From Candidatus Firestoneibacteriota bacterium (lineage in GTDB: Bacteria; Oederibacteriota; D2-FULL-39-29; JBDRBU01): 17,086 bases of DNA. Shown here in pieces: positions 913 to 16,870 of the stretch (position 1 is the stretch's first letter; every line of letters starts with the position of its first letter). A program made the translations under genes and the position numbers. Under the pieces are notes generated by a model that saw nothing but the letters and a program-made list of their open reading frames with translations, searched no databases and had not been told where the DNA came from. The stretch spans positions 1-17,086 of the forward strand of contig JBDRBU010000054.1 in NCBI GenBank assembly GCA_043822305.1. Direction: 5' to 3'.

Positions 913-947
913 TTACCCGAGAGTTTTTCTTGGGTTTTTGATATTAT
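913..947 (+). promoter_or_regulatory. Conserved hairpin + extended -10 module, copy 1
   Basis: TTACCCGAGAGTTTTTCTTGGGTTTTTGATATTAT; near-identical to 9500-9534; lies upstream of ORF 974. Confidence 0.75.
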
Positions 948-973
948 AAATCTATAAAATAAAAAATTAAGAT

Positions 974-1516
974 ATGGGAGAGAATAAAATAGATAAAAAG
1001 AAATTAATTGAAAAATGGGCTGTCCGTTGCTTTTTAATAAACACAGGCGTTAATCCAACAGAGTCATTATTTATGCCTTATCCAGAAGAACCAGCAGATA
1101 TAATCTACGAGAATCAGGAGTTTCAAGTGACGACCGCACCCGCTGAAGTAGAAGCAGTGGTCGGACGGCTTGATAGAGAGGAAGTGGTGAAAATCGGTAA
1201 TACCGAGGGAGAATGGGTGAAGTTCGGTCCGATAAGAGTTAAGTCGTGGGGTAGTAGTTGTAACATAGAAGAAAGTTTTGATCTCTTCATTATCAAACCC
1301 ATTGAAAATAAGCTTGACCATTACGGACGGAAATCAACGCCAATAGCGTTAAAAGACATTAATCTTTTGATATTTTGTTATAATTCTATTGTTTCTCCTT
1401 GGAACGAGGAATTATTTGATGAGTTTAAAAAGAGCAAATCAGATTACTTTAAAAAGACGGGCTTCAAGAGTATTTATCTACTTGACCAAAAAACCAACAT
1501 AAAGATTTATCCTTAA
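974..1516 (+). CDS. Hypothetical protein, possible PD-(D/E)XK-fold nuclease
   Basis: 180-aa ORF containing EEPADIIYENQEFQVT (PD...Q/E-x-T-like motif); preceded by the repeated promoter module. Confidence 0.6.
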   Translation: MGENKIDKKKLIEKWAVRCFLINTGVNPTESLFMPYPEEPADIIYENQEFQVTTAPAEVEAVVGRLDREEVVKIGNTEGEWVKFGPIRVKSWGSSCNIEESFDLFIIKPIENKLDHYGRKSTPIALKDINLLIFCYNSIVSPWNEELFDEFKKSKSDYFKKTGFKSIYLLDQKTNIKIYP

Positions 1517-1570
1517 TTCTTTACCCTTTTTTATTTAAGCCAATAACTAAGTTATTTGTTTGAAGAAGTT

Positions 1571-1597
1571 AAAAAGCCACCATTTGGGTAGTTTTTT
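1571..1597. terminator. Bidirectional terminator-like hairpin
   Basis: AAAAAGCCACC-ATTTG-GGTAGTTTTTT between the ORF 974 stop and the minus-strand tail stop at 1600. Confidence 0.55.
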
Positions 1598-1599
1598 GA

Positions 1600-1680
1600 T
1601 TAAAAGGCAAAGTTCAATGATTTCATTTCTTCTTTAATCATATTCCAATTAATAGTTCTAAACGCGTCCTGTGAGGGGAG
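1600..1680 (-). mobile_element. Candidate att site S1 with orphan recombinase-like C-terminal tail (LPSQDAFRTINWNMIKEEMKSLNFAF*)
   Basis: Plus strand 1655-1679 GTTCTAAACGCGTCC-TGTGAGGGGA; homologous to S2-S5; the minus frame ends in TAA followed by a terminator. Confidence 0.6.
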
Positions 1681-1810
1681 AAGGGCCAGTAAAGTGTCCA
1701 AAGTGTGGCAATACACAATTGTACAACCATATGAAGATGATCTTATGATTGTGAATTGTCCTCGTTGTAAAGAAGGGAAGCTGATATCAAAAAGAGAATG
1801 GATTTCTTAA
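1677..1810 (+). pseudogene. 5'-truncated, frameshifted zinc-ribbon gene fragment
   Basis: GEGPVKCPKCGNTQ, then a frame change, then VQPYEDDLMIVNCPRCKEGKLISKREWIS*; it begins at the GGGGAG end of site S1. Confidence 0.55.
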
Positions 1811-1963
1811 AATCCTCGCGTGCGCGCGCGTAAAAGCGTAGGGAAACCCCTAATCCAGCCATAAAACGTAATAATTATTAGAAGAGGATGGTTTTCTTAA
1901 TCCTCACGCGCATACGCGTAAAAGTGTTCAGAAACTCTTAATCCAATCATAAAAAGTAATAAT
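1792..1963. repeat. Imperfect tandem duplication, two units of about 82-84 bp with CG-rich core
   Basis: 1792-1875 AAGAGAATGGATTTCTTAAAATCCTCGCGTGCGCGCGCGTAAAAG...CATAAAACGTAATAAT versus 1882-1963 AAGAGGATGGTTTTCTTAATCCTCACGCGCATACGCGTAAAAG...CATAAAAAGTAATAAT. Confidence 0.85.
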
Positions 1964-1971
1964 CAAAGAAT

Positions 1972-2292
1972 ATGATATGTGCTTATTGTAGAGAAGAGAT
2001 AAAAAATAATCGTATATCAGCTGCGAGTAGGTATTTTTGTTCTCAGATTTATTATTTACGTTTCCTTAAGGAGGAAATGCCAAATTTGGGTGGGATTTGG
2101 ATTTCAGACGAAGATATAAAGAAAGCAGAACAACTTCAAGGGCAAGAGCAAGATGATTTTTGTTCTCAAAAGATTTTTTCTATTTTAGATAATTTTAATT
2201 CAACTCCACTTATGTCTAAATTACTTGATGGTGAAAAACCCAATGGTTCTGAAAACAACAATGACTCTAACGGTGACGTAAATAAACAGTGA
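1972..2292 (+). CDS. Hypothetical protein with degenerate CxxC...YFCS metal-binding motif
   Basis: MICAYC...RYFCSQ resembles a TRASH/YHS-type motif; followed by a terminator-like hairpin. Confidence 0.5.
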   Translation: MICAYCREEIKNNRISAASRYFCSQIYYLRFLKEEMPNLGGIWISDEDIKKAEQLQGQEQDDFCSQKIFSILDNFNSTPLMSKLLDGEKPNGSENNNDSNGDVNKQ

Positions 2293-2339
2293 GTGGGATA
2301 ATGAGATACAATGAGACACCTTCAAAATAGATAAAAAAG

Positions 2340-2362
2340 ATGCTTATAAATGAAGCATTTTT
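2340..2362 (+). terminator. Possible intrinsic terminator
   Basis: ATGCTT-ATAAATG-AAGCAT followed by a T run, with an A run upstream. Confidence 0.4.
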
Positions 2363-2505
2363 AGCTATATAATTTGGGCTTGCGACTAATTGTAAGTATA
2401 ATAGAGTTACATGAAGAAAATGATTTTTATAAGACTAATGGAAAAAGATTAGAATGAATAAAGAAGAATCTAATAAATTTCTTAACAAGGTAAAAATTAA
2501 ATAGA

Positions 2506-5007
2506 ATGGAAAATAATCGTTTAACTTATATCAGTTTATTCAGCGGGGGCGGTATTGGATGTTTTGGTTTTAACCAAGAGGGTTTTGATTGTATAGCTAC
2601 AAATGAAATTATAGAAAAAAGACTTAACATACAAAAATATAATAAGATTTGCAAATATAAATCTGGTTATATAGGTGGAGACATAAAAGAAGATTATATA
2701 AAAAAAGCTATTTTTTTAGAAATCAAAAAGTGGAAAAACAAAGAGAGATTAAGTGAGGTGGATGTTCTTGTAGCTACTCCCCCTTGTCAAGGAATATCTA
2801 TCGCTAATCATAAAAAGAAAAATGAAAAAGATAGAAACTCTTTAATAGTAGAATCCATAAAGTTAACTAAAGAAGTTAATCCCAAATTTTTTGTTTTTGA
2901 AAATGTAAAATCTTTTTTAAATACAATTTGTATCGATATTGATAACAAAGATAAACCAATAAAAGAAGTTATAGAAAGAAATTTGGCCGGTAATTATAAT
3001 ATTTTGTATAAGGTTATAAATTTTAGAGATTATGGGAATAATTCCAGTAGAACCAGAACATTAGTTATAGGTGCAAGAAAAGACATCAAGGAGGTGAATC
3101 CTTACGATGTTTTTCCTGAAAAAAAGAGTGGAAAAATCTTAAAAGAAACAATTGGAGAATTGCCACGACTTGAAATAATGGGCGAGATTAGTAAGAATGA
3201 TTTTTATCATAGTTTTAGGCCATATAAGAAATATATGATGGATTGGATAAAAGACTTGAAAGAGGGAGAGTCTGCTTTCGGTAATAAAGATCCAAATAAA
3301 AGGCCTCATCGAATAGTAAACGGAGAGAAAATTAATAATAAAAATAAAAATGGAGATAAGTATACGAGGTGCTTTTGGAACAAGATAGGGCCTTGTATAC
3401 ATACGAGGAATGATGTTTTGGCTAGTCAATCGACAATACATCCTAGCGACAATAGGGTTTTTAGTATTAGAGAATTAATGAAATTAATGACAATACCAGA
3501 TAATTTTAAATGGGTTGATTTAGATCTTGATACCATAAATTCTTTAAACTTAAATGAAAAAAGAAAATTGTTATCCGTAAACGAGTTGAATATACGTCAA
3601 TCAATAGGAGAAGCAGTCCCAACTGTTATTTTTACTCAAATCGCAAAAAAAATTAAAAAAATAACAAATAAAAATTTTTTAGACGCTAAAAAAACTAAAG
3701 AAATAATAGAAAAAAATAATCTAAAAGATGCTAGTAAACTAAAAGATTATATAAAAATCAATTTAGATAATTACTTTTTGCCAGACTTGTTTAAAATATC
3801 GGAGTTGGCTAATTCCCAAAGGATAAGTAATTCTGCTTTTTATACAAAGCAAAATATTTGTTTTTCTCTACTCAAAGAATTGCCTGACTTTAAAGAAAAA
3901 AAATATATAAGAATTTTAGAACCATCCGTGGGGGTAGGTAATTTTTTGCCGCTTATAATCAAAAAATACGAGCATGTCGAAGAAGTAGATATAGATGTAA
4001 TTGACTTAGATAAAAGTGCTCTCGATGTTCTGAAAATACTAATTAAGAAAATAAGAGTTCCTAAAAACTTCAAGATAAATTTTATAAATTCCGATTTTTT
4101 AATGACAAACTTTAATAGCAGATACGATTTAATTATTGGGAATCCGCCTTTCGGAAAAGTTAAGAATAATCCAAAACTATTAGAGAAATATAAATTAGAT
4201 AAATTTAACAAAAAGACGAACAACATCTGTTCTTTTTTCTTGGAAAAGGCCATTAAAAATGGGGATTGGGTCGCATTAATATTACCTAAAAGTATTTTAT
4301 CTGCGCCAGAATTTGATGATACTAGAAAACTTTTATCCGATTACGCATTCAAGACATTAATAGACTATGGGGAAAAAGGTTTCAAAGAGGTAAAAATAGA
4401 AACCATATCTATTATCTTAAATACGAAAAGAGTTAAAGTAGATAATATAATCAAAATCGAATCTTATATTACTAATAGTATATATTTTAAAGAACAAAAA
4501 TATATATTTTCTAACAACTTTCCAGTTTGGCTAATTTATAGGAATAATTTTTTTGATGACATTTGTAGAAAATTAAAGTTCGGCTTATTCAATGTTTTTA
4601 GAGACAGAAAAATCACGAAGAAGCATACAAAAAATAAAGGTAAAATTAGAGTTTTAAAATCAAGGAATATTGCCAATAATCATATTTTGGATATTAAAAA
4701 TTACGATACATATATAGATAGTCTAGAAAATTTACAAGTTTCTAAATTCATAAACAAAGAAAATGTAGTTTTAGTGCCTAATTTAACATATAATCCAAGG
4801 GCTTGTTTTTTAGCAAAAAAATCTATAACAGATGGTTCGGTCGCAATTTTAACTCCCAAAGTAGATGAATTAATATCAAAAGAAGATTTAGAATATTATA
4901 ATAGTAAAGAATTCAAGGACTTTTATTTGCTTTCGAGAAATTTAGGCACAAGATCTTTAAATATTGATAAAAATTCCGTTTATTTTTTCGGTGTTTTAAA
5001 AAGATGA
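2506..5007 (+). CDS. Bifunctional DNA methyltransferase: N-terminal C5-cytosine MTase fused to C-terminal N6-adenine (gamma-class) MTase, M.HpyAV/Hin4II-like
   Basis: C5 motifs: LFSGGG (I), PPCQ (IV), ENV (VI), SRTR (VIII), IGEAVP (X). Amino-MTase motifs: FYT, LEPSVGVGNFL (I), IIGNPPF (IV). Confidence 0.93.
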   Translation: MENNRLTYISLFSGGGIGCFGFNQEGFDCIATNEIIEKRLNIQKYNKICKYKSGYIGGDIKEDYIKKAIFLEIKKWKNKERLSEVDVLVATPPCQGISIANHKKKNEKDRNSLIVESIKLTKEVNPKFFVFENVKSFLNTICIDIDNKDKPIKEVIERNLAGNYNILYKVINFRDYGNNSSRTRTLVIGARKDIKEVNPYDVFPEKKSGKILKETIGELPRLEIMGEISKNDFYHSFRPYKKYMMDWIKDLKEGESAFGNKDPNKRPHRIVNGEKINNKNKNGDKYTRCFWNKIGPCIHTRNDVLASQSTIHPSDNRVFSIRELMKLMTIPDNFKWVDLDLDTINSLNLNEKRKLLSVNELNIRQSIGEAVPTVIFTQIAKKIKKITNKNFLDAKKTKEIIEKNNLKDASKLKDYIKINLDNYFLPDLFKISELANSQRISNSAFYTKQNICFSLLKELPDFKEKKYIRILEPSVGVGNFLPLIIKKYEHVEEVDIDVIDLDKSALDVLKILIKKIRVPKNFKINFINSDFLMTNFNSRYDLIIGNPPFGKVKNNPKLLEKYKLDKFNKKTNNICSFFLEKAIKNGDWVALILPKSILSAPEFDDTRKLLSDYAFKTLIDYGEKGFKEVKIETISIILNTKRVKVDNIIKIESYITNSIYFKEQKYIFSNNFPVWLIYRNNFFDDICRKLKFGLFNVFRDRKITKKHTKNKGKIRVLKSRNIANNHILDIKNYDTYIDSLENLQVSKFINKENVVLVPNLTYNPRACFLAKKSITDGSVAILTPKVDELISKEDLEYYNSKEFKDFYLLSRNLGTRSLNIDKNSVYFFGVLKR

Positions 5008-5567
5008 TTATGATAGGAATCATAATAACAGAAGAAATGCGCCAACAAGCTAAAATTGAGACTAAAAAAAGAGACTCATTTATTAAGCATCATTTTGAAG
5101 TAAACCATCTTAGTAAAAATGAAAGAGATGAAATAGGATTTTTAGGAGAATTCGCTTGTTGCATTTTATTTGGCATCGATTGGAAAAAAAACATAAGAGA
5201 TAATTATCTTACAATTGACAATTTCGATTTAATAATTAAAAAATTTAGAGTAGATGTAAAATGCGAAACGGTGCCATATAATTATGCACAAAAAATACTA
5301 ACGAGATCTATCAAAGACGATGAACTTTATGGCAGACGCCTAATAAACGAGGGACAATTCAACATTCTTAATAAATATGACATTGTTATTTTTAGTTTAT
5401 TTATTAGGGATAGGATAGATATATGGTATCCAATCGGATATTTAGAAACAAAAATAATTTTAACTAATTATCAACCTACTTTTCAGAGGTCCGATGGAGG
5501 TAGCTATCCTTTTTCTGGTTCTCCTGTACCTACATCTATTCTAAAACCAATTAATAATCTTTTATGA
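5004..5567 (+). CDS. Putative PD-(D/E)XK endonuclease within the R-M operon
   Basis: GFLGEFA helix followed by FD...VDVK catalytic-like motif; ATGA overlaps with both neighbouring genes. Confidence 0.65.
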   Translation: MIMIGIIITEEMRQQAKIETKKRDSFIKHHFEVNHLSKNERDEIGFLGEFACCILFGIDWKKNIRDNYLTIDNFDLIIKKFRVDVKCETVPYNYAQKILTRSIKDDELYGRRLINEGQFNILNKYDIVIFSLFIRDRIDIWYPIGYLETKIILTNYQPTFQRSDGGSYPFSGSPVPTSILKPINNLL

Positions 5568-6754
5568 ATAATGAAAAAATTAAAGAATATTTAGAAAAAG
5601 TTAATTTAGACATTAGACAAACGAAAGATGCCAGATTTATGGATCAAAAGGTGACGCCTGATGTTCTTTGTATTATTGCTGATTGTATAACGAACTATAT
5701 TGAATCTATTGAAAACGAAAATAGAGAATTTACAACTAAAGATATTTGGAGTTATCAATATTCTAACGATAACGTAAAAGCTATTTTCAATAAGCCCGAT
5801 GTTTTAGATAGAAGTGCTAAAAGCGAATACGACAAATTTTTTCAACAACCGTTAAAGGCGTTAGCCTATTCTAATGTTTTATTTTGTGAGAAAAGAGGAA
5901 ATAAAAATTATTTTAAGGTTAAAAATAAAAATCTTTTAAAATATATATCTATCAAAGAAAGAAACGCATTAGAGTTTTTATTGTTATATCTTGAGAAAGT
6001 ATTAAGAGATAGTGATATTTGGAAATATTTCGAAGATTTTTTTAAAAACAATGATAAGCAACACTTTAACGAGTTGAAGAAAAATTATGAAGATTTTATT
6101 TTAGAAAACACTTCTATAAAAGGCAGAGTGGAAATTCGTAGAATTTTTACGAAAGTCTTAAATCCATTAGCTTATATTGGTGAACTACACGGGACCGAGA
6201 GAGGATTTTTTTCTAGATTTCCTATTGATTATTCTAGCTTAATGTATAATCGCAGAAATTGGCGTGATATAGCAAAAGTAAAAAATGAAACAAGGGATCA
6301 ATACGAAGCAAGAGCTCAAAATCAAGTGTTTGCTTACACTAATTATTCTATACAAAAAGCTAAGAATATAATTAGGAGTTTATATCATTCTAATAGTGAA
6401 GTTCATGATGAATTTGCTAACGACAAAGCTAATCAGGTGCATCATATTTTTATGGCCTCTGATTATCCAGAAATCGCTTTTTATTTAGAAAACTTAATAT
6501 TACTTACTGCAAATCAACACCTAACTCACGCACATACAGACAATAATACAAGAACGATTGATAAAGACTATCAATTAATTTGTCTTGTATCAAAAAGTGA
6601 ATCAATCGAGCAATCGCTAGCCAAAAATGAGCCGATCTATTCGAAAGAGGACTTTTTATTTGTATTAGAAAGTGGCCTAAAAGTAAAACTTAGTAATTCC
6701 ATTAACTTTCAAGAAATAAGGGACGAGCTGATGACAATATATAATAAAAACTAA
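5564..6754 (+). CDS. HNH-type Type IIS restriction endonuclease, HpyAV/Hin4II-like
   Basis: QVHHIF...ENLILLTANQH HNH motif near residue 290-320 of 396 aa; operonic with the fused m5C/m6A MTase. The family call comes from architecture, not a database search. Confidence 0.8.
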   Translation: MNNEKIKEYLEKVNLDIRQTKDARFMDQKVTPDVLCIIADCITNYIESIENENREFTTKDIWSYQYSNDNVKAIFNKPDVLDRSAKSEYDKFFQQPLKALAYSNVLFCEKRGNKNYFKVKNKNLLKYISIKERNALEFLLLYLEKVLRDSDIWKYFEDFFKNNDKQHFNELKKNYEDFILENTSIKGRVEIRRIFTKVLNPLAYIGELHGTERGFFSRFPIDYSSLMYNRRNWRDIAKVKNETRDQYEARAQNQVFAYTNYSIQKAKNIIRSLYHSNSEVHDEFANDKANQVHHIFMASDYPEIAFYLENLILLTANQHLTHAHTDNNTRTIDKDYQLICLVSKSESIEQSLAKNEPIYSKEDFLFVLESGLKVKLSNSINFQEIRDELMTIYNKN

Positions 6755-6756
6755 TT

Positions 6757-6849
6757 ATGAAAGCTATAATCTTAGCCAGAGTTTCACAAGAAGCTAAAAG
6801 GATTAAAAATATGAAAGCTGTAATACTCTTAAGAGTTTTAATAAAATAA
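6757..6849 (+). pseudogene. Two tandem serine-recombinase N-terminal stubs (MKAIILARVS...MKAVILLRVL*)
   Basis: 30-codon ORF; MKAIILARVS matches the serine-recombinase catalytic strand (Y/L-A-R-V-S); a second degenerate copy starts in frame at 6811. Confidence 0.6.
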
Positions 6850-6858
6850 AAAATTAAT

Positions 6859-6924
6859 ATGTCGCTATCAAAAGAATCAATTAAAGAATTTAAGAAAATC
6901 TATAAAAAAAATATAAGAATTTGA
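6859..6924 (+). pseudogene. Truncated paralogue of the small helical protein family (MSLSKESIKEFKKIYKKNIRI*)
   Basis: EFKKIYKK and DNA GAATTTAAGAAAATcTATAAAAAA are shared with ORF 10166/10181. Confidence 0.6.
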
Positions 6925-6955
6925 AAACAAGGCGAACTCGGTTTCGTCCTATATT

Positions 6956-7141
6956 ATGGTTCAAGTTCCAAAAAACAGAATTTTAAATCTTCAGCGGATA
7001 CTTAAAGAAGAATATGGTAAAAAGCTTTCGTTCGCTGAAGCCACGGAGGCCGCTAATAATCTTGTCGGATTTTTTGATTTATTGGCGGAAATAGATACAA
7101 GAGATAAAGGGAAGGGCAAAATAAAAAAGCAAAAGAGATAA
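6956..7141 (+). CDS. Small helical hypothetical protein (paralogue of 10166-10351)
   Basis: KEEYGKKLSFAEATEAANNLVGFFDLLAEIDTR aligns with KKEAGEEISDREAYEKGNNLVNFFRLLYKIDRR. Confidence 0.75.
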   Translation: MVQVPKNRILNLQRILKEEYGKKLSFAEATEAANNLVGFFDLLAEIDTRDKGKGKIKKQKR

Positions 7142-7149
7142 TTTTAATT

Positions 7150-8085
7150 ATGAGATGTCATTATGTTCCCCAATTTTATTTAAGGAATTTTGCAATACAT
7201 AGTAAGCCAAAACATGTTTATGCATACAGGCGCAAGTATGATCCTTTCGAAACAAAGATTAGTACGGTGGCAGCCAAAAACGATCTCTATATTTTTAAAG
7301 ATAAGAATACTGGTAAAAAGAATGACGAGATCGAAAAAATGTTCGCTTGGATTGAAAGTTCATCAGCACCAATAATAAACCGAATTATTAGTCAAGATTC
7401 TTTTAGTATCTCATCATTATCAAATCAGGAACAGATTGTTCTAGCAAATTTTATTGCTTTTTTACATACACGAAATTTATCCTTTCGAGAGCAACAAAAA
7501 AATCTTTATTCGGCAGGAATTAAAATTAATCTAAAAATAAAAGCAGAAGACGAAAAAGTTTTTAAGCAGGATATTAAAGATGCTCAAATTAAAATTGAAA
7601 GTGACAAAGAAATTGAAGACTTGCGACAGAGTATTCTGGATTTTGATAAGCATTTTAAAATAGGATATGACAAGAGTAGTAATGATTTTTTTCTAAAACA
7701 GTCACTTTTGCTCTCTTTAAAATTAAGCCCAATTATTTTTAATAAGGAATGGCATCTTTTGGAGTCAGATAGTGGCAGGGTCTTCATAACTTCGGATAAT
7801 CCTGTATCCCTAATACGTCCAGAAAATCTTCCACCATTTTATGGAGTAGGGTTTATAAATGGGCATATAGCGGTGCCTCTTTCTCCTTATAAATGCCTCC
7901 TATTAAAAAATGGCAAGGATGGTGCAGAAAAATTAAAGATTGATAGGAATACCGTGAATTTTTTTAATAGACATGTTATGTTTTTTGCACATAAATTTGT
8001 CTACTCCAGTTTACTTTCCAAAGACACTCAAGATGATTTTAATAAGACCAAAGAAGGTGCAAGCGAACAAGTGATTATAAATTAA
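7150..8085 (+). CDS. DUF4238 domain-containing protein
   Basis: N-terminal HYVPQFYLRNF and internal FITSDNPV signature motifs. Confidence 0.88.
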   Translation: MRCHYVPQFYLRNFAIHSKPKHVYAYRRKYDPFETKISTVAAKNDLYIFKDKNTGKKNDEIEKMFAWIESSSAPIINRIISQDSFSISSLSNQEQIVLANFIAFLHTRNLSFREQQKNLYSAGIKINLKIKAEDEKVFKQDIKDAQIKIESDKEIEDLRQSILDFDKHFKIGYDKSSNDFFLKQSLLLSLKLSPIIFNKEWHLLESDSGRVFITSDNPVSLIRPENLPPFYGVGFINGHIAVPLSPYKCLLLKNGKDGAEKLKIDRNTVNFFNRHVMFFAHKFVYSSLLSKDTQDDFNKTKEGASEQVIIN

Positions 8086-8117
8086 AATTTATTTTTATTA
8101 GCAGAAGCAAAACAAAT

Positions 8118-8918: not shown

Positions 8919-8972
8919 TAAGATATAGTGAATAGTGGTATGGTAGGGATAAGGTATAATAAATCTATTAAC

Positions 8973-8981: not shown

Positions 8982-8993
8982 CTTTTTTATTAG

Positions 8994-9410: not shown

Positions 9411-9494
9411 TTATAATAGACCTCGTTTTAATATTTTGAGTTTTACTTTAACTTCATTTCAATTAATATTTCTAAATATATTCAATAATAGGAA
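9411..9494 (-). mobile_element. Candidate att site S2, degenerate (FLLLNIFRNIN*NEVKVKLK...)
   Basis: CAATTAATATTTCTAAATATATTC aligns with S1 CAATTAATAGTTCTAAACGCGTCC; peptide FRNIN*N versus FRTINWN; directly abuts promoter module copy 2. Confidence 0.5.
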
Positions 9495-9499
9495 CTCGT

Positions 9500-9534
9500 T
9501 TACCCGAGAGTTTTTCTCGGGTTTTTGGTATAAT
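9500..9534 (+). promoter_or_regulatory. Conserved hairpin + extended -10 module, copy 2
   Basis: ACCCGAGA-GTTTT-TCTCGGGT (9502-9522) then TGGTATAAT; ATG lies 6 nt after TATAAT. Confidence 0.8.
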
Positions 9535-9540
9535 AAACAT

Positions 9541-10044
9541 ATGAAAGAAAAAAATATTCTCGTAAGTCGTGCAATTAGTCGCGCGAATACAGGGCTTTAT
9601 TTTTTGAGAGAATGTCTGAGTAGGATACATAAGGGTGGAACAGATGCGGCCTTTTCTCGATCTATATATATTTTATTTTCTTTTAACTTCGAATTAATTT
9701 TAAAATCTAGAATAATTTTAAATCGGAGCGCTACAAATAAGAGAGATTTACTTAAGGGTATCAAGCACCATAATCTTGAAAAATTAGCCGAAGAGCTTCC
9801 AATCCAAGCATTAAAAGATATAGATATAAAAGATATTAAAATAAAGAAAGATACGGGTTTTATCGAATATAAAATAGAGACAGTTAATGGGCAAGAAATA
9901 ATCGTTCAAGATTTAATTGACGTTAGATATGATTTTATAAAAGACAATCTTCGCAATCAAGATGCCAAAGAATCAATGAGAATGAATAGCGAAATAGATA
10001 TTTTGTTAGAGATGGTTAAAAAAATAATGACTCTTAATAGTTAG
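9541..10044 (+). CDS. HEPN-like protein (167 aa; start re-assigned from 9436 to 9541)
   Basis: FELILKS...HHNLEKL...DVRY pattern typical of HEPN-fold proteins; the upstream extension only translates the promoter module. Confidence 0.65.
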   Translation: MKEKNILVSRAISRANTGLYFLRECLSRIHKGGTDAAFSRSIYILFSFNFELILKSRIILNRSATNKRDLLKGIKHHNLEKLAEELPIQALKDIDIKDIKIKKDTGFIEYKIETVNGQEIIVQDLIDVRYDFIKDNLRNQDAKESMRMNSEIDILLEMVKKIMTLNS

Positions 10045-10090
10045 ACCGAGACGCGTCAGTGGGGAAGTACAAAACAGTCTAAATCTCCCC

Positions 10091-10147
10091 TTAAAATATT
10101 GGTTCCAAGCCGAACAAGCAAGTTCTAACATCGTCCCATAGCGTCAG
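10091..10147 (-). mobile_element. Candidate att site S3 with tail LTLWDDVRTCLFGLEPIF*
   Basis: Plus strand 10122-10136 GTTCTAACATCGTCC is the exact reverse complement of 11644-11658; a GGGGA/TCCCC hairpin (10061-10090) follows the tail stop. Confidence 0.65.
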
Positions 10148-10165
10148 AGAAGTCGATTTTTTTTA

Positions 10166-10351
10166 ATGGATTATAAAAATATGATTTCAGAAAAAGCATT
10201 AGACGAATTTAAGAAAATTTATAAAAAAGAGGCCGGGGAGGAAATTTCTGACAGAGAAGCTTATGAAAAAGGAAATAATTTAGTTAATTTTTTTAGATTG
10301 CTTTATAAAATCGATAGAAGGAACAAGATTAAAAAAAAGAGTTTTAAGTAA
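10166..10351 (+). CDS. Small helical hypothetical protein (likely start 10181, MISEKALDEFKK...)
   Basis: Paralogous to 6956-7141 and 6859-6924; lies immediately after site S3. Confidence 0.75.
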   Translation: MDYKNMISEKALDEFKKIYKKEAGEEISDREAYEKGNNLVNFFRLLYKIDRRNKIKKKSFK

Positions 10352-10991
10352 TCCACTCAATATCATAACTATCAGAAAAATCATCGTGACCAAGTGTTGC
10401 CTTTTCATTTACCGCTAAGTTAAATAGCCTAATAAGCTCATTCTCTGCCTGATTCAACCTGAACCCTTTCCAATATGTACCCGTAAGAAGCTCAAGGTGG
10501 TTATTCAAATATGTATCTAAACAAACCTTACCATCTCCAGTTATCACGAAGAATTGATGTCTTTTGAGTGTAAACTTAATTTCGTTCGATTCTAACAACC
10601 AATGTAACTCATTAACTTTATACTTATTCTCCAAAGACGCTTTTCCTCCTAAAATAAATCCAATTGCATGTTTCTTTCCATCTTTATAGCGATTGAGTTC
10701 TTTTTCTATACTATTTTCTATAAAATCTTTAAAGTCATCGACTATTTGAAACTGGCTTTTTCCTTTCCACCTGTCTAAAGCCTCATACTCCGAGCAATAA
10801 ACTCTCCAGTCTTTATTATCAATTCTGTTAATCCCATGATTAAGTATCATGTAAGGGATTTGTTGAAATTTATATATTTTATTATGAGTATCCTCAAACT
10901 TAACTGAACCACTACTACTGATAATTTTGTATCTCTTATCAGCACAAACACACATTCCATTTTTACATATAGCTGTAAGGATTAAAGTCAT
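10344..10991 (-). CDS. Ntn-hydrolase / proteasome beta-subunit-like protein
   Basis: M-T N-terminal nucleophile, TLILTAICKNGMCVCADKR (ADxR), a KI motif near residue 38 and a GDG motif; 3 bp downstream of the HEPN-like gene. Confidence 0.65.
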   Translation of the reverse strand: MTLILTAICKNGMCVCADKRYKIISSSGSVKFEDTHNKIYKFQQIPYMILNHGINRIDNKDWRVYCSEYEALDRWKGKSQFQIVDDFKDFIENSIEKELNRYKDGKKHAIGFILGGKASLENKYKVNELHWLLESNEIKFTLKRHQFFVITGDGKVCLDTYLNNHLELLTGTYWKGFRLNQAENELIRLFNLAVNEKATLGHDDFSDSYDIEWIT

Positions 10992-10994
10992 TGT

Positions 10995-11582
10995 TTATAT
11001 TCTACTTTTTACTTTATTACTCCCTTGGAGAGAATTTATTTTTTCGTTAAGCTTCTTATAAGAAATGTCTTTTGCTTTTTTTAAAAAATCAATTATTTCA
11101 TCCGTATAGTGTATGTGCACGAAAAGAGCCATATCTTTTTTTCTAGCTATTAATCCAAACCTAACAGATTCGCTATCTTTAAAACAACAAACTTTTTCCT
11201 CATTAAAAATCAATCTGTAGTCATGAAGAGTGCCATTATTTACTTCTTTAATTTCTTTAATTCCAAAATAGTCTTTTATTCCATTTTCTTCTATCAGCCT
11301 GCTAATACTGTGACCAAAGAATTTTAATTTTTTTATAGTCATCGCTTCAATATCTTCTTCTGTGTCAATATCCGTAGTCTCTACAAAATCAGCTGCTATA
11401 ATGACCTTTAAAAATAATTCTAAGGAGGTAGTTGCTAAGAGACAAAAAGCATATAAGTCTCTTTCAGGCTTATTTTCTTTATAAAGATTTTCGATAGTTT
11501 CAAAATATCTGCTTGCCATAGTCCATAGAACGAATATATTCTCTGTAAGAAAGGTTCTTTTTTTCTCATTTTCCTTTTTCAT
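10995..11582 (-). CDS. HEPN-like protein (distant paralogue of 9541-10044)
   Basis: LELFLKV...FGHSISRL...SVRF pattern; preceded by the same promoter module at the same spacing. Confidence 0.65.
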   Translation of the reverse strand: MKKENEKKRTFLTENIFVLWTMASRYFETIENLYKENKPERDLYAFCLLATTSLELFLKVIIAADFVETTDIDTEEDIEAMTIKKLKFFGHSISRLIEENGIKDYFGIKEIKEVNNGTLHDYRLIFNEEKVCCFKDSESVRFGLIARKKDMALFVHIHYTDEIIDFLKKAKDISYKKLNEKINSLQGSNKVKSRI

Positions 11583-11588
11583 AGCTTT

Positions 11589-11623
11589 ATTATACCAAAA
11601 ACCCGAGATAGATTCTCAGGCAA
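11589..11623 (-). promoter_or_regulatory. Conserved hairpin + extended -10 module, copy 3
   Basis: Minus strand TTGCCTGAGAATCTATCTCGGGTTTTTGGTATAAT, then 6 nt, then ATG at 11582. Confidence 0.8.
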
Positions 11624-11632
11624 GATAGGTAT

Positions 11633-11674
11633 TTCCCCTGGCTGGACGATGTTAGAACCTGTTTTATAAATTAA
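11633..11674 (+). mobile_element. Candidate att site S4 with tail FPWLDDVRTCFIN*
   Basis: Minus strand GTTCTAACATCGTCC-AGCCAGGGGA, 10 nt upstream of promoter module copy 3; the tail is followed by a terminator. Confidence 0.65.
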
Positions 11675-11730: not shown

Positions 11731-12483
11731 CTATTTCCTTTTTTTCTTTATAAAATAATAAACAACATATCCAATACCAATAATAAAGATCAATATTGGC
11801 CAAAAGTAACCAGAAGCAAATAATAAGAAGCTGGCCGTCTCAGTATTAGCAAGAGAAGCTTGCTGATCTTCTGCTGATGGTTCGTTATTAACATCAACTA
11901 TCTCTTGAGCTGGAGTTTCAATTTGCTGAACTTCTGGCTGTGTTATTTGTTGGGTTGTTTCAGGTGTTGGAGTTGGTGTTGGAGTTGGTGTTGGTGTAGA
12001 AACTGGTGTCGGTGTAGGTATCGAAACAGCATTAATCGTATAATTTCCGCTTATTGAAGCTGAGCCGACTGATGCTCCCTCGCCTATTATATCAACTCCT
12101 GTAGCACTAATAGAGGCTGTACCAGCACTTCCTGCCTTAACTGATAATGTTAGTAATGTCTTATCTGATATAGTGCAATTTGGTATGCCAATTAAGAAAT
12201 AGGGATTCGAACAGGTCGGCGAAGATTGTGCCATAACGTCACTTGCCACGGTTATACTTTGGCAAGATAAATTATTAAAAACTAATGTCCCCTCAACTGC
12301 ACAAATCTTGTTTCCCGATGCATTAAATCCTACAGATATACTAAAAGTGTTCCCAACTGTTTTGATTAAACTTGCCGGGGAAACATATAAAGAAGACCCT
12401 ATAGCGTTTGCTGTACCGACAAAACTAATAACCGATAAAAAAATAATTGCTGATAATATAATTTTTGTTTTAATATTTTTCAT
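11731..12483 (-). CDS. Cohesin-like domain surface protein with Pro/Thr linker and C-terminal TM anchor (likely start 12483)
   Basis: Signal peptide; SLYVSPAS...VGNTFSISV...AVEGTLVF beta-sandwich pattern; (PT)n repeat; hydrophobic C-terminus followed by KKKRK. Confidence 0.7.
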   Translation of the reverse strand: MKNIKTKIILSAIIFLSVISFVGTANAIGSSLYVSPASLIKTVGNTFSISVGFNASGNKICAVEGTLVFNNLSCQSITVASDVMAQSSPTCSNPYFLIGIPNCTISDKTLLTLSVKAGSAGTASISATGVDIIGEGASVGSASISGNYTINAVSIPTPTPVSTPTPTPTPTPTPETTQQITQPEVQQIETPAQEIVDVNNEPSAEDQQASLANTETASFLLFASGYFWPILIFIIGIGYVVYYFIKKKRK

Positions 12484-12500
12484 ATTTATATTTATATTTT

Positions 12501-13262
12501 TTATAATCCCCATTTTGACATTAATAAAGAGAAATCATATTTATCAACTTTTCCATCGCCATTAAAATCGCAAACATTTATTCCTGTCTTACCCCAATTA
12601 GCCATTATCAAAGAAAAATCATATTTATCAACCTTACTATCGCCATTAGCATCGCCTGTTTTAGTTATTATTGACGTAACTAGTGGTGTTATAGATGGAG
12701 CTCCTCCTCCACCACCGCCACCTCCTCCTCCACCACCAGTTGAATCGGCGACACAAGTATTCCCACTCTGATGGTATCCGCTATTACAACTCATCCAAGT
12801 ACAATCTCCCCAAATGCTACCATTCCAAACTTGGCTTCCTGTCCCATTTGTTATGTCACAAGATTGAACAGTCATAAAGTATATATCTTTATTTATTGTT
12901 GTGCCTGCTTGAAAACCATCTGTATATTTTATTTCGTTTCCTCCAGTTAATGAATTTGCGGCATCAGATAAAAGATATTTAAATAAAATGTCGCCATCAC
13001 AACTTAATATTAATAATTTTATCTTCATCGAATCAGCATATCCATAAATTCCACTCTCTGACATTGTAACTTCACCAATTAATGAACTACCACAAAAGGC
13101 TTCTATTTTTGTTCCACTCGATAGTGGTTGGCCATCTATTGTTGCTGTACCCCAAAAAGCCATCGGAAAAGATGGAAAAGCATTACTAGCTAAAGATAAA
13201 GTTGGTAATAACCAAAATCCCAATACAAGAAGTGATAATTTTATTATTTTTAATTTCATCAT
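12501..13262 (-). CDS. Secreted dockerin type I domain protein
   Basis: Signal peptide; Cys-rich segment; poly-Gly linker; duplicated Ca-binding repeats GDANGDSKVDKYDFSLIM and CDFNGDGKVDKYDFSLLM. Confidence 0.85.
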   Translation of the reverse strand: MMKLKIIKLSLLVLGFWLLPTLSLASNAFPSFPMAFWGTATIDGQPLSSGTKIEAFCGSSLIGEVTMSESGIYGYADSMKIKLLILSCDGDILFKYLLSDAANSLTGGNEIKYTDGFQAGTTINKDIYFMTVQSCDITNGTGSQVWNGSIWGDCTWMSCNSGYHQSGNTCVADSTGGGGGGGGGGGGAPSITPLVTSIITKTGDANGDSKVDKYDFSLIMANWGKTGINVCDFNGDGKVDKYDFSLLMSKWGL

Positions 13263-13325
13263 CGAAAAAAATATCGAATAAATTTAGTTGGCAATCTCCA
13301 GGTTATGAATAAATAAACTAACCTA

Positions 13326-16300
13326 TTATGAAGGATTAACAAAATACAATCCATTAACCGGTAAGCCGCTGGTTAAAGCATTGCTTACATTGACTATGCC
13401 ATCGTTCCAGAGAGTAGAATTGATCTTCAATGCAAATGAATCACCATCATTCTCGAAGTCAGTTAAAGTACATTCTACGTAATAGTTTCTGGTTGTTCCA
13501 GCAGGAATGGTATCAGTAATTTGAACTGCAGAAGTAGCACCAACAGTCAATACTTCAGCACCGCTTGATATACCGACTAAAGCGTCAGTGTCTGCTCTGT
13601 AGACGGTTATTGTGTCGGTAGTGGTATCATTGTCATTTTGAGAACCAAGAACTGTGAAGGTGATTGAATCACCAGTTGTGAAGATCACATCTCCCTTAGC
13701 GTCAGCAGTGATATTGAAGTCCAAAACTCTCATTGTTCCAGCAACCAAAGTTCCAGAAGGAGTACCAGTAGACAAAGCAAATGTAGGCTTAGTCTTAGCA
13801 AGAGTCATCTCGTTAAAGTTTATAGCAGTTTCTGGGTTTGGAGAGCCAGCAACTGATGTTACGGTAGCGCCAGAAGATGCTCCGACAGCTTTAATCCCAG
13901 CCGCAGATAAATTGGCTGCACCAGTAATATCGGTAAGATAGAATCTTGGAGTGTGGTTAGAGGTTGCACCTTCAGATATACCGTTTAGATCAACCTTAAG
14001 AGTTAATGTTACGCTGCCATCTTTAGGAACTTGAACACCGGATATGTAGAATGTGTGGGCTACATCAGCACCTGAACTATCTCCTGTTAAATAACCAGGA
14101 GCACTAACTTCAGTTGAGCCATTGTATAAATGAATAGCTTCAATGTCGGGAACATTATTAATTCCGTCTGTCTGTAAATAAATATTTAAGGCTTCTAAGT
14201 TTATAGCTTCATTGGTAGCAGTGAATCTAATCTTATTAAATACAACACCATCAACTCCGCTGGCTCCGACAGCTACGTTAGCAGCAACTGGAGTGTCAGA
14301 AGCGACAGCTACGGCTAAAGTGCCGGCACTCACCAAGGTAATCACACCACTGTTAGCGGTATCTGTACCAGTACCGTAAATAGTAATGTAGGAAGATAAA
14401 CCTGTTCCAATAACATCTGTGGTTCCAGTAAGATCAGCTATACCAGTAGCAATTCCTACATTACTTCCGACTAAAATATTACCCTTCAAAGTTAAAACTT
14501 TTTGGGTTGCTTTAGGAATAATTACTGAAAGACCAGCAAACTGAACAGTGGTAATAGAACCTGAATCGGTAAACGCAGATATAACAGTACCAACTTGAGT
14601 GGCACCATCGTAAAGCTTTAAAGAACCGATATAGTAATCTGTAGCTCCACTATAAGTTAATTCAGTATCAGAACCAGTAGTGAACTTAATAGAACTGACT
14701 CTTATGTCTTCATCAGCTCCACCGGTCAATACTACTTTAGCTAATTCAGCGTTAGCAGTATTAATAATTTGGGTTGTGGAATCAAGAGATAAAAATGAAA
14801 CGGTTAAGGTCCCTGGCAATAAAGCAGTCATGTTCTGTCCAAGAGCGTCAACTCCAGGATCAGCGACAACTGCACCAGAAGAAACACCAGTAGCATATAT
14901 GTCTGCATCGATTGCTATTGAAGCAGTATAAGTATCCCATCTATTTGCACTTACTGTGTCTGAAGGAATATCAGAAGTAACTTTTAATGTTTTAATAACA
15001 TCCTTAGCTAAAGTTAAGTTAATGCTAAAAGCAGCTGTTGAGGTTGGAGAAGAAACAGTTGAACCCAACTGTGTAGCTCCATCCCAAAGCTTAACATTTA
15101 CAAAATCAGCTGCCTGAGCAACATTACTTTGGTCTGCCGCATCATAGAGATTAACAACTACAGAAGAAAGAATTATGTCTTCTCTTGAAGCAGTAAAATC
15201 AACTGCTAAGAATTCGAAATCAGTTGTTCCAGGAGCAACAGCTTGAGTAGTAGGAGTACTTGAACTAGTAGCCATTGCTATAGTGCCAACAGAAGCATTA
15301 GCAGTGTGGTTTGTTACTTCACCTAATGTATCAACCGCGGAAATATTTATAATTTCACTAACTAAATTACCCTGAGATAAAATACCGTCAACCTTAACCT
15401 CATTCACATAAATACCAATAGTTGTATAACTGGCAGAATTAGGAATATCAGCTCTGACATGAATTACAACATGATTAGATTTAACAACATCAAATATTCC
15501 AGAATCAAGTCCAATAGAATCTGCACCAAAAGTGGCTGTAGTACCAACAAAGTTGGTAGCTGAATCAATTAGAATTTCTACTCCAGTTGCTTCGTCATAC
15601 CTATATAAAGCCAAGTTATTTATATCTGTTGTACCAGCACCAGTACCGCCTAAGCTTAATTTCAATCTGGAGACTCTTAAATTTTCTTCAGGACCAGCAG
15701 TAAAACGAAAGGCGGAAAGTAATTGTCCAGATGTTCCATTAACAAAAGACTTAGCTGAAGGATTAGTTGCTCCGTCTAAGGTAATAGTCATACCAGAGCT
15801 TTGGCTAATAACTCCAAAGTTTGCAGTGATATTAATATCTGCAGTTACATTGGTGTCAGTTCTTGGATTGACTGTTAATTCATCGCTCCAATTTACAAAA
15901 TGGTGACCGGAAGCTGGTACGGCAGTTACAGTTGTTCCATTTAAACCAGATGGTACTATTTGCGATGAAGTTCCAGTGATAGAACCATTAGCTCCTGCAG
16001 TATAAGTTAAAGTGTATTGAATGGGTAAAGAAAGATTTTGAGAGCCAATATAATTATCTGTCGTACTTGTCACAAAAATTCCATAACCTTTTAATTCCCT
16101 AAAATCATTTAAAGAATTAACATCAGACGCTATTTTAGAAAGCCAATTATTACTTATGGCTGGTGAGTCTAAACTTGTATTACCATTTGTGAAATCAATT
16201 ACCTGTCCAATTGAACCGGTTATAGAACTCAAAATATTGCTTGGATTATTAATATCGGCATTGGTTGAATTTTGAGGCAAAGCATAGCTTGGCGAAGCTA

Positions 16301-16703
16301 TACCAATAGCATTCCAACCAGAATGAAGAGTTCTTTGAAATAATCTTTGAGCAGGAGTTAAGTCAAAATTATAATTTAATCTTAAGGTTTGATCTTGTCC
16401 TGTTTTATTATTTATAAAATATGCGAAAAGAGGTTGAAATTCAGTCTGCCCAATTCCCTGCATTGTTTGCCATCCAGAAGGAGAAGTTGGATCTAATAAA
16501 TATATATCAAAATTATCTGATGTTTGTGCGACTGAAAATTCGTGGCTTGATAGAATTTTGGGAGTGGAGACTATATTCCATCCAGAAATCAGAGTTATTG
16601 TTTGATAGTCTACCACAGCCGCTTTTACACTTTGATTAACAGAAAAAAGTCCAACAAGTAAAAGTGTGGTTAAAATTACGTAAAGCTTTAGAGAATTTTT
16701 CAT
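13326..16703 (-). CDS. Large secreted S-layer/adhesin-like protein with an InlB-B/Flg_new-type repeat and tandem beta-sandwich repeats
   Basis: Signal peptide; GWNIVSTP/GWNAIG motifs; YTLTYTAGANGSITG...VTAVPASGHHFVNWSD repeat; recurring FTAxxEDIxLSS...KLYDGATQ units; Thr/Ser/Gly-rich. Confidence 0.8.
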   Translation of the reverse strand: MKNSLKLYVILTTLLLVGLFSVNQSVKAAVVDYQTITLISGWNIVSTPKILSSHEFSVAQTSDNFDIYLLDPTSPSGWQTMQGIGQTEFQPLFAYFINNKTGQDQTLRLNYNFDLTPAQRLFQRTLHSGWNAIGIASPSYALPQNSTNADINNPSNILSSITGSIGQVIDFTNGNTSLDSPAISNNWLSKIASDVNSLNDFRELKGYGIFVTSTTDNYIGSQNLSLPIQYTLTYTAGANGSITGTSSQIVPSGLNGTTVTAVPASGHHFVNWSDELTVNPRTDTNVTADINITANFGVISQSSGMTITLDGATNPSAKSFVNGTSGQLLSAFRFTAGPEENLRVSRLKLSLGGTGAGTTDINNLALYRYDEATGVEILIDSATNFVGTTATFGADSIGLDSGIFDVVKSNHVVIHVRADIPNSASYTTIGIYVNEVKVDGILSQGNLVSEIINISAVDTLGEVTNHTANASVGTIAMATSSSTPTTQAVAPGTTDFEFLAVDFTASREDIILSSVVVNLYDAADQSNVAQAADFVNVKLWDGATQLGSTVSSPTSTAAFSINLTLAKDVIKTLKVTSDIPSDTVSANRWDTYTASIAIDADIYATGVSSGAVVADPGVDALGQNMTALLPGTLTVSFLSLDSTTQIINTANAELAKVVLTGGADEDIRVSSIKFTTGSDTELTYSGATDYYIGSLKLYDGATQVGTVISAFTDSGSITTVQFAGLSVIIPKATQKVLTLKGNILVGSNVGIATGIADLTGTTDVIGTGLSSYITIYGTGTDTANSGVITLVSAGTLAVAVASDTPVAANVAVGASGVDGVVFNKIRFTATNEAINLEALNIYLQTDGINNVPDIEAIHLYNGSTEVSAPGYLTGDSSGADVAHTFYISGVQVPKDGSVTLTLKVDLNGISEGATSNHTPRFYLTDITGAANLSAAGIKAVGASSGATVTSVAGSPNPETAINFNEMTLAKTKPTFALSTGTPSGTLVAGTMRVLDFNITADAKGDVIFTTGDSITFTVLGSQNDNDTTTDTITVYRADTDALVGISSGAEVLTVGATSAVQITDTIPAGTTRNYYVECTLTDFENDGDSFALKINSTLWNDGIVNVSNALTSGLPVNGLYFVNPS

Positions 16704-16749
16704 TTGATTCTAATTATATTAAATTATAATAAATTATCTATCCGCTTTT

Positions 16750-16778
16750 ACTATCACTTAAAAAACAATAAATGTCAA
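16750..16778 (-). promoter_or_regulatory. Possible sigma70 promoter for the surface-protein cluster
   Basis: TTGACA (16778-16773), 17 nt spacer, GATAGT. Confidence 0.4.
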
Positions 16779-16800
16779 GGTAGAATAAGCTAAATTTATT

Positions 16801-16834
16801 AATAATAAAAACCACGAGAAAAACTCTCGGGCAA
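16801..16834 (-). repeat. Conserved hairpin module, copy 4 (-10 box degenerate)
   Basis: Minus strand TTGCCCGAGAGTTTTTCTCGTGGTTTTTATTATT. Confidence 0.75.
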
Positions 16835-16849
16835 CAATTATACAACTCA

Positions 16850-16870
16850 GCTCACCAGATAGGACTCGAA
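16850..16870 (-). mobile_element. Candidate att site S5: tRNA 3'-end-like fragment (T-loop + acceptor strand)
   Basis: Minus strand TTCGAGTCC-TATCTGGTGA-GC resembles a tRNA 3' half (tRNA-Asn-like TTCGAGTCC-N10-GCCA); no 5' tRNA half is present; 15 nt upstream of module copy 4. Confidence 0.5.

Follow-up and report, generated by a model that had tools for sequence, protein, structure and literature searches.

Putative relic junctions of large serine recombinase elements at tRNA-like sites in an accessory region of a Candidatus Firestoneibacteriota genome

Organization of the contig

The window analysed here is the whole of contig JBDRBU010000054.1 (hereafter C54), a 17,086-bp stretch of DNA from a Candidatus Firestoneibacteriota bacterium in which five tRNA-like sites (S1 to S5) and four copies of a hairpin module are interspersed with genes. 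We read this window as probably a mosaic accessory region, with segments bounded by relic junctions of large serine recombinase (LSR) elements that integrate at tRNA 3' ends of the tRNA-Asn type. The assembly comprises 2.15 Mb in 125 contigs, with a G+C content of 0.32, completeness of 96.8% and contamination of 2.0%. Mis-binning of the contig was considered and found to be unsupported, its tetranucleotide correlation with the bin being 0.986 (13th lowest of 79 contigs) and its G+C content lying at the median.

The genes are arranged in two convergent blocks, on the plus strand from 912 to 10351 and on the minus strand from 17086 to 10344, and the sites are co-oriented with the genes in each. 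Plus-strand genes span positions 2-10351, with a minus-strand gene at 8139-8825 as the sole exception, and minus-strand genes run from 16703 back to 10344. In the plus block, a module copy and a cassette gene (974..1516, 180 aa) are followed by S1 and a multi-gene block (1972..8085), then by S2 with a module and a single-gene cassette (9541..10044, 167 aa), and finally by S3 and an open reading frame (ORF) of 61 aa (10166..10351). In the minus block, S5 and a module precede three surface-protein genes (16703..11731), and S4 with its module precedes a two-gene cassette encoding proteins of 215 aa and 195 aa (11582..10344).

Recombinase-tail and tRNA 3'-end-like sequences at the five sites

All five related sites proposed in the initial annotation were found where it had placed them, with S2 weak when taken alone and S5 different in sequence. 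S3 (10094..10153, plus strand, core 10121-10136), of a subtype that we designate DDVRT, and S4 (11612..11674, minus strand, core 11659-11644), the best-preserved site, both carry GTTCTAACATCGTCC at 15 of 15 positions, starting at 10122 and 11658, respectively. S1 (1600..1682, plus strand, core 1655-1669) agrees with this 15-mer at 12 of 15 positions and represents a second subtype, DAFRT, whose exact 15-mer is also present in a Nealsonbacteria array (genome G041). S2 (9434..9493, plus strand) is missed by the site profile and was recognized as a decayed S1-type site from about 40 nt of similarity to the left flank of S1, with a local score of 38 against 16.9 +/- 3.1 in shuffled sequences, a score reached by none of 2000 shuffles.

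S5 (16850..16870, minus strand) is of the tRNA 3'-end type. Its sequence, TTCGAGTCCTATCTGGTGAGC, comprises T-loop, T-stem 3' strand, acceptor 3' strand and G73, and by manual count it agrees at 17 of 21 positions with the 3' end of tRNA-Asn genes from bacteria of the candidate phyla radiation (CPR), with the same T-loop and T-stem. An unrelated metagenome contig (L138) has a 20/21 twin of S5 immediately before the same hairpin module. No tRNA body is present upstream of S5, ARAGORN calls no tRNA or tmRNA genes in the window, and Rfam returns no family at threshold there, with one sub-threshold match, in the ORF-free stretch at 8826-9435, to AS-pc01 (E 0.39, 27 bits vs 79). The 3' end of the tRNA-Asn gene in the same assembly differs from both S4 and S5.

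Read on the opposite strand, three of the sites encode the C-terminal end of an LSR, each closing with a stop codon: LPSQDAFRTINWNMIKEEMKSLNFAF at S1, TSLTLWDDVRTCLFGLEPIF at S3 and ...FPWLDDVRTCFIN at S4. The antisense translation of S1, LPSQDAFRTINWNMIKEEMK..., matches residues 530-549 of a 564-aa LSR (P0004) at 12 of 20 positions (BLASTP, E 5e-7); that of S3 matches residues 529-541 of P0021 at 10 of 13 (E 2e-5); and that of S4 is identical over 7/7 residues to positions 533-539 of the 540-aa P0024. A tblastn search of the window with ten LSRs yielded only these three tails as convincing matches, and the assembly holds no PF07508 match and no homologue of P0043, just a 190-aa resolvase on contig C15. 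The serine recombinase origin that the initial annotation had proposed is thus borne out, as is its statement that the recombinase survives only as stubs. At the level of sequence, these alignments show S1, S3 and S4 as apparent tail half-sites of two LSR subtypes, with S2 a probable decayed one and S5 the putative tRNA-type version.

An LSR family antisense to tRNA genes

Complete LSR genes with the expected arrangement occur in CPR relatives. In genome G043 (locus L077), a 535-aa LSR encoded on the strand opposite to tRNA-Asn ends ...SPTLLRR and stop, its last codons lying antisense to the acceptor end of the tRNA gene. At the far end of this island, about 11 kb on, there is a diverged site that reads LPQLNAIRTCLM in antisense, followed by a hairpin module with the CCCGAG stem and then by older sites. 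The search for a cognate intact recombinase and tRNA therefore succeeded in part, with both found in CPR relatives, no LSR in the assembly itself and no tRNA on the contig, both ends of which are open and which has no intact tRNA at an array head.

Of 8,000 candidates scored in a database search with the G043 LSR, 6,992 proteins reached E <= 1e-20. The 120 best homologues include many that end ...LLR(R/G/W) and many that continue into antisense tRNA sequence (...DSNLQP, ...GQDSNLQP), and eight of them carry the tail D[DEN]V[RK]T in the form ...LLR(G/L/R)LDDVRTC(L/I/F), with DAFRT, DNIRT and DHVRT in others. LRGLDDVRTC is the exact antisense translation of the site, and recombinase genes ending in the site sequence, on whose existence the earlier proposal depended, are therefore real.

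Members of the family were detected in 171 of 401 sampled CPR genomes, and at 25 of 30 CPR LSR loci (L092-L121) a tRNA gene on the opposite strand overlaps the LSR stop codon. Seven of these 25 tRNAs are tRNA-Asn, and the others decode Lys, Trp, Glu, His, Gln, Ser, Arg, Asp, Gly and Phe. The family thus lies antisense to the 3' ends of at least eleven tRNA types, and its C-termini are often encoded by the antisense T-arm (...WDSNPRP...).

The connection between site and tRNA-Asn is seen most directly at loci L034 and L039, at which a same-strand tRNA-Asn(GTT) is followed by one cassette and then by a site. The 3' part of the site (TCCAGCC-nnC-GGAG-C) equals the T-stem 3' strand, acceptor 3' strand and G73 of these tRNA genes, and at L039 the likeness runs on into the flank. 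The sites, which had been described as tRNA-acceptor-like, therefore mimic the tRNA-Asn T-stem and acceptor 3' strand. Sequence comparison shows the attP of the element as lying, by our reading, inside the 3' end of the LSR gene itself: the left half of the predicted attP (AAACAGGTTCTAACnTCGTCCAGCCnnCGGAGC, on the tRNA-sense strand) would encode the LSR tail ...LLR(G/L)LDDVRTC... in antisense and at the same time mimic the T-stem and acceptor 3' strand of tRNA-Asn.

Site arrays in other genomes

Alignment of 113 sites gives a 33-nt consensus, AAAcA GGTTCTAAC n TCGTCC AgCC nnc GGAGC, whose conservation ends abruptly on both sides and which S3 and S4 both fit. The attP of a serine integrase consists of half-sites and a crossover core, and the 33-nt motif with its sharp right edge at GGAGC fits one attP half-site plus a putative crossover core.

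A motif scan with GGTTCTAACNTCGTCCAGCC, covering one genome per species, returned 51 stretches in 50 distinct contexts, mostly from Patescibacteria/CPR, with some from Omnitrophota and few from other groups. Within loci the sites are co-oriented, spaced 0.5-2.5 kb apart, on the same strand as the genes and just past stop codons. In five genomes the motif is grouped in one to three arrays of 5-15 copies each, lying among core genes such as obg and ftsZ and holding small accessory or house-cleaning genes (Ham1, NUDIX, 2-thiouracil desulfurase, HD, HAD and MscL). Four of the five array-bearing genomes encode LSRs; the fifth, the complete genome G041 with about 25 sites, has no serine recombinase. 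Viral contigs gave four motif matches, L087 being the single real site among them, and no match is inside an LSR gene.

Intact tRNA-Asn genes head the arrays in L034, L039, G043, G045 and G042. A comparison of the last two genomes agrees, for this CPR pair, with the expectation that gene-content breakpoints between relatives fall at the sites. The CPR arrays start at tRNA-Asn, and G045 and G042 differ exactly there: the flank is 85% identical up to the tRNA gene, and past it the match is limited to the sites and one 398-bp segment. Right after its tRNA-Asn, G042 has an extra 2.25-kb insert that lacks an LSR, is bounded by a direct repeat beginning CGGAGC and carries ars-like genes (ArsR-like, thioredoxin-like, permease and rhodanese). 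We also observed that the tRNA-Asn genes heading the arrays in G042 (L071, about 15925-16207) and in G041 (L130) contain an intron-like insertion of about 200 nt after the anticodon region, and that ARAGORN does not call either of these genes.

In the genome under study, a profile built from 121 sites of other genomes and run against the 2.15-Mb assembly finds no site other than S4 (E 2.2e-9) and S3 (E 0.01). The 15-mer and the hairpin stem are likewise confined to C54: at three mismatches the 15-mer gives 37 matches of which 34 are random-looking, and the stem, with up to 3 mismatches, is found only on this contig. Among 99 genomes of the same phylum, the 16-mer has eight exact matches in five genomes, against about 0.5 expected (an estimate from 6 Mb per genome and 4^15 words). 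A separate search of 40 relatives gave a 30-nt match to S4 in a high-G+C genome of this phylum. The genome scans that had been suggested for this and related genomes gave a divided answer, locating S3 and S4 alone in the genome itself and arrays in CPR, and leaving the own-phylum matches to the 16-mer with one mismatch at background level.

These arrays also bear on the reading of the sites as a true integron remnant, that is, an attC cluster without its integrase, which we regard as extremely improbable. In its favour, there may be a likeness between the left side of the motif and the R''-L'' half of an attC site. Against it, the reverse complement of the core is present within 300 nt downstream in 1 of 50 contexts, and the core duplex energy over 90 sites is -8.52 kcal/mol downstream and -8.51 kcal/mol upstream, compared with -8.45 kcal/mol in shuffled DNA. 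Furthermore, no IntI reaches the 265-bit cut-off of the integron integrase model TIGR02249 in the five array-bearing genomes or in the genome under study (best match 86 bits), and the sub-cut-off matches are Xer-like and far from the arrays. An attC identity was rejected on the absent complementary partner, the shuffle-level duplex energy and the lack of IntI, in agreement with the initial view of a system unrelated to IntI/attC. On these sequence comparisons the sites are probably attachment-site junctions left by a serine recombinase, and not attC hairpins, and the initial interpretation taken as a whole is partly supported.

The hairpin module

The module to the right of the sites consists of a terminator-like stem, a T-run, the sequence TGnTATAAT and an ATG 6 nt on. 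Copy 2 (9499..9543, plus strand) has its stem at 9502-9522, followed by a T-run, TGGTATAAT (-10 element at 9529-9534) and, after 6 nt, the ATG at 9541; copy 3 (11583..11623, minus strand) has the same order, with its stem at 11621-11601, a T-run, TGGTATAAT (-10 element at 11594-11589) and, after 6 nt, the ATG at 11582. Copy 1 (912..969, plus strand, stem 915-935) is 86% identical to copy 2 over 58 nt and has a T-run and a decayed -10/start region ahead of the gene beginning at 974. Copy 4 (16805..16849, minus strand, stem 16829-15) is preceded by the spacer TGAGTTGTATAATTG, and downstream of it lies a promoter-like TTGACA-17-GATAGT (16778-16750). Overall, the four copies (starting at 912 and 9499 on the plus strand and at 11623 and 16842 on the minus strand) are 79-89% alike over 27-58 nt. 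The same module had been reported 6-17 nt after S2, S4 and S5; it does follow all three, at distances from site end to stem of 9, 13 and 18 nt, respectively, and copy 1 is an additional, fourth copy with no site upstream. All four stems were called as terminator-like, and the window contains 21 such calls in total, against 8.1 +/- 3.0 in shuffled sequences.

Outside the window, the module keeps the same company, as the earlier suggestion of a promoter-like unit travelling with the sites had anticipated. A hairpin with a T-run lies within 120 nt downstream of 45 of 115 external sites and upstream of 15, the hairpin types including CCCGAG at nine sites and TCGCC at 11. The exact 22-nt stem of the window was found in 116 distinct metagenome contexts; in 54 of the 114 copies with 110 nt of upstream sequence, a same-strand match to the site profile lies upstream of the stem, as compared to 0 of 107 control segments, and many of the remaining copies show, by eye, diverged variants of the site. 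In ten copies, a same-strand tRNA gene lies within 200 nt upstream of the stem (Asn 4, His 2, Gln 2, Lys 1, Glu 1). In metagenomes, sites and tRNA 3' ends usually have this module on their right.

Downstream sequence of at least 60 nt was available for 113 copies, of which 37 have T(G/T)nTAnAAT after the stem, with an ATG 4-8 nt later in 20 of these (at exactly 6 nt in 15), and a further 44 have TTGAC. Nine of the copies with T(G/T)nTAnAAT and an ATG begin ATGAAAGA. This layout suggests that the module terminates the upstream transcript and starts a leaderless one.

Several further observations concern the edges of the module. The spacer between site and hairpin (16832-16849 in the window; also L019, L194 and L202) has two recurrent forms, one TGAGTTGTGGAATTG-like and the other TCGTATTTTT-like; the former may correspond to the antisense of the final codons of the LSR body in L077. 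Unrelated genes behind the module (9541-9555 and 11582-11568 in the window; L131, L165, L169, L187 and L204) open nearly alike, with ATGAAAGAAAAAA..., MKEK..., and the shared module seems to extend into the first codons of the cassette genes. The module itself might conceivably be an antisense of LSR codons (YxQxP), an idea for which the sole alignment has E about 1.

The module raises the question of whether site and hairpin are mainly regulatory punctuation of the host, providing a terminator, a promoter and a leaderless start, with the likeness to recombinase and tRNA being historical or incidental. Some CPR sites do part ordinary genes, lying upstream of ftsZ or next to Ham1, NUDIX and GMP-synthase-like genes and always co-oriented with them; the spacing within the module is promoter-like; and one 222-kb metagenome contig carries six exact 22-nt stems over about 100 kb, with a site upstream of all five among those listed. 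This reading is nevertheless very improbable in our view, given that the motif is conserved at the nucleotide level across phyla of very different G+C content (L003 and L028 being of high G+C), that its antisense matches LSR tails in two subtypes, that arrays are anchored at tRNA-Asn, and that the rest of the genome under study is free of the motif.

Gene content and other features of the contig

The multi-gene block after S1 encodes, on the plus strand, a 106-aa Zn-finger-like ORF, a type II restriction-modification system, a 61-aa ORF and a DUF4238 protein (7150-8085). The restriction-modification system comprises a fused m5C and N6A methylase (2506-5007), a 187-aa ORF and a restriction endonuclease (5564-6754). 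The three surface-protein genes on the minus strand (11731..16703) encode products of 260 aa, 253 aa with a dockerin, and 1125 aa with an InlB B-repeat-like domain.

No family in Pfam, NCBIfam, PHROGs or PADLOC was assigned to the small cassette genes; this holds for the 180-aa gene, for both genes of the cassette downstream of S4 and its module, and, with regard to Pfam, NCBIfam and PHROGs, for the 167-aa gene. The labels "nuclease-like" and "HEPN-like" given initially to genes of the window accordingly find no counterpart in these collections. HEPN is a lead only, the Atlas showing it on 10-11% of members of one cluster (11% for the 167-aa gene), and the two HEPN-like candidates are not significantly similar to each other. 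The 195-aa gene has no relative among the metagenome contigs.

The 61-aa ORF after S3 (10166-10351) is a paralogue of 6956-7141; together with a partial third copy, the paralogues occupy 6858-7141 and 10166-10351, one directly after S3 and the other just before the DUF4238 gene, and no family was found for them. The sole minus-strand gene of the plus block (8139-8825, 228 aa) is bracketed by 35-nt direct repeats at 8109-8143 and 8884-8918, 91% alike, and looks like a separate insertion; it is followed by 610 nt without ORFs (8826-9435) containing several hairpins. Between S1 and the multi-gene block, positions 1684-1963 hold a frame-broken small Zn-ribbon ORF with two CxxC pairs in different frames, and after it a tandem duplication of about 88 bp (1811-1875 / 1899-1963, 78%) with an alternating-CG hairpin in each copy.

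Discussion

We conclude that the region was assembled from material that went through the LSR system and that its sites are now orphan relics. Under this reading, integration would place the LSR body against the tRNA gene in opposite orientation, with the tail half-site remaining at the distal boundary of the insert, and serial insertion beside the tRNA, followed by loss of the LSR genes, would stack the segments. The right-hand neighbour of the junctions, as of real tRNA 3' ends, is usually a terminator-like hairpin with a T-run, and then either an extended -10 with an ATG 6 nt on or a TTGAC -35. The module would end transcription of the preceding unit and start a leaderless transcript of the next gene. 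The convergent blocks may have arisen by inversion or by separate acquisition, and because the assembly has no LSR, the sites are presumably inert in the present genome unless a recombinase comes in trans.

Several results weigh against this account. With neither an LSR in the assembly nor a tRNA on the contig, the history is inferred from other phyla. No synteny with the contig was detected by DNA search in any of 40 relatives, the three short matches being chance-level or restricted to the site, and, allowing one mismatch, the 16-mer has 23 matches in the 99 own-phylum genomes, compared with 21 for its reversed control. Not every site has an acceptor-like part equal to the tRNA-Asn of its host, and the crossover point is therefore not fixed. 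None of 117 sites lies within an intact antisense ORF (the longest being 154 aa), and the DDVRT-tailed LSRs could therefore be elements integrated into an old site and not free attP forms. Promoter calls in the AT-rich window are at chance level (82 vs 76.3 +/- 9.9), and the 167-aa gene has a homologue in one of the 401 CPR genomes, within an operon and with no flanking site. Lastly, relic junctions of LSR elements leave the origin of the one-gene cassettes without an LSR unexplained.

A stronger reading is that of a working integron analogue, in which a trans-acting LSR inserts and excises single LSR-less cassettes, each consisting of module, gene and site, at any site, and in which the sites of the window are live. 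The compact, recombinase-free ORF-site-ORF arrays, among them the roughly 25 sites of the complete G041 with no serine recombinase, speak for it, as does the 2.25-kb insert without an LSR that only one of two related genomes has, placed exactly at the tRNA-Asn end and flanked by a direct repeat; the likeness of the site to a tRNA half-site could make it a secondary target, and LSR ORFs running into antisense sites would suit integration into sites. Yet no circular cassette or excision junction was observed, nor did any cassette recur identically at two positions of an array. Serine integrases of the phiC31/Bxb1 type normally need attP x attB, attR-type junctions being poor substrates, and the genome under study is without an LSR and carries degenerate S2 and S3. 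On balance we hold such a working system to be unlikely, and the LSR-less cassettes may instead be tandem islands that have decayed. The narrower proposition that the site-plus-module junctions are live targets, at which an incoming serine recombinase might insert, excise and reshuffle LSR-less cassettes, is doubtful though conceivable. If it were true, every incoming cassette would bring its own terminator, promoter and leaderless start codon, amounting to a functional integron analogue based on a serine recombinase and a tRNA mimic and able to cross from CPR to other phyla, such as that of the genome under study; if the junctions are still recombination targets, they would constitute a second, independently evolved gene-cassette platform.

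Taken as a set of relic LSR junctions, the window links an intergenic repeat that is widespread in ultra-small (CPR) bacteria to one enzyme family, present in the 171 of 401 sampled genomes given above, and places the same scars, together with a putative portable expression unit, in the genome of another phylum. What is new from the window is this occurrence outside CPR and a clear view of the putative portable unit of terminator, promoter and leaderless start. Short attP/attB pairs based on a tRNA-Asn mimic, combined with a compact terminator/promoter/leaderless-start module, would serve genome engineering.

Comparison with known systems

A full-text literature search, with most subscription journals outside its coverage, found no paper describing an LSR/tRNA-Asn site system. 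An absence of precedent for the kind of system does not hold, given the tandem serine-recombinase islands at the Dehalococcoides tmRNA gene, which are the closest published analogue found (McMurdie et al. 2011, PMC3146451). These ssrA islands are tandem, are bounded by a 20-bp repeat of the 3' end of the tmRNA gene, encode a 540-aa serine recombinase on the reverse strand at attL, insert in the T-loop, and have a conserved 15-bp motif upstream of the repeat that is unlike the target gene (PMC3146451). They share with the present system tandem units after a tRNA-like gene, repeats of its 3' end, a reverse-strand LSR, a conserved motif just ahead of the repeat and insertion in the T-loop region (PMC3146451). 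The systems differ in target, which is tmRNA there and tRNA-Asn and other tRNAs here; in size, the ssrA islands measuring about 12 kb and the units here often being single genes of 0.5-2.5 kb with no integration module; in the conserved motif, which here is the coding tail of the recombinase itself; and in the terminator/promoter-like module at the junction and the hosts, here CPR and another phylum.

Repeats of the target 3' end, which bound the units of ssrA genomic islands and of staphylococcal cassette chromosome (SCC) elements, are found here as well, S5 being a 21-nt tRNA 3' fragment. An LSR with Resolvase, Recombinase and Zn-ribbon domains beside the target is lacking in the window and the assembly and present at L077 and at 25 of 30 loci. 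An attP inside the recombinase's own gene is indicated by LSR C-termini that equal the antisense site, by the agreement of sites in the window with those C-termini, and by G043, where the LSR body adjoins the tRNA and its tail lies at the other end of the island.

The CPR arrays resemble integrons in that a conserved site closes each co-oriented one-gene cassette, units are newest beside a fixed anchor, and the arrays contain no recombinase; in the window, co-oriented cassettes with one 3' site each are seen within each convergent block. Unlike integrons, the system involves a serine and not a tyrosine recombinase, linear half-site relics and not folded attC hairpins, a tRNA gene as anchor in place of attI, and an own promoter-like module in place of Pc.

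The present system is like SCC and SCCmec elements in the serial insertion of elements by an LSR (Ccr) at the 3' end of a conserved gene (rlmH), in the repeated site sequences and in the existence of recombinase-less pseudo-elements, and unlike them in that theirs is a protein-gene target, their elements span tens of kilobases and their attP is not known to lie inside the recombinase ORF. A last parallel is with SSV-type archaeal integrases, whose attP is within the integrase gene. There, too, integration cuts the recombinase gene in two, and the 3' fragment stays behind at the distal junction; these enzymes, however, are tyrosine integrases encoded by archaeal viruses, and the split affects most of the gene, whereas the exchange here concerns about 15-30 C-terminal codons of a serine recombinase.

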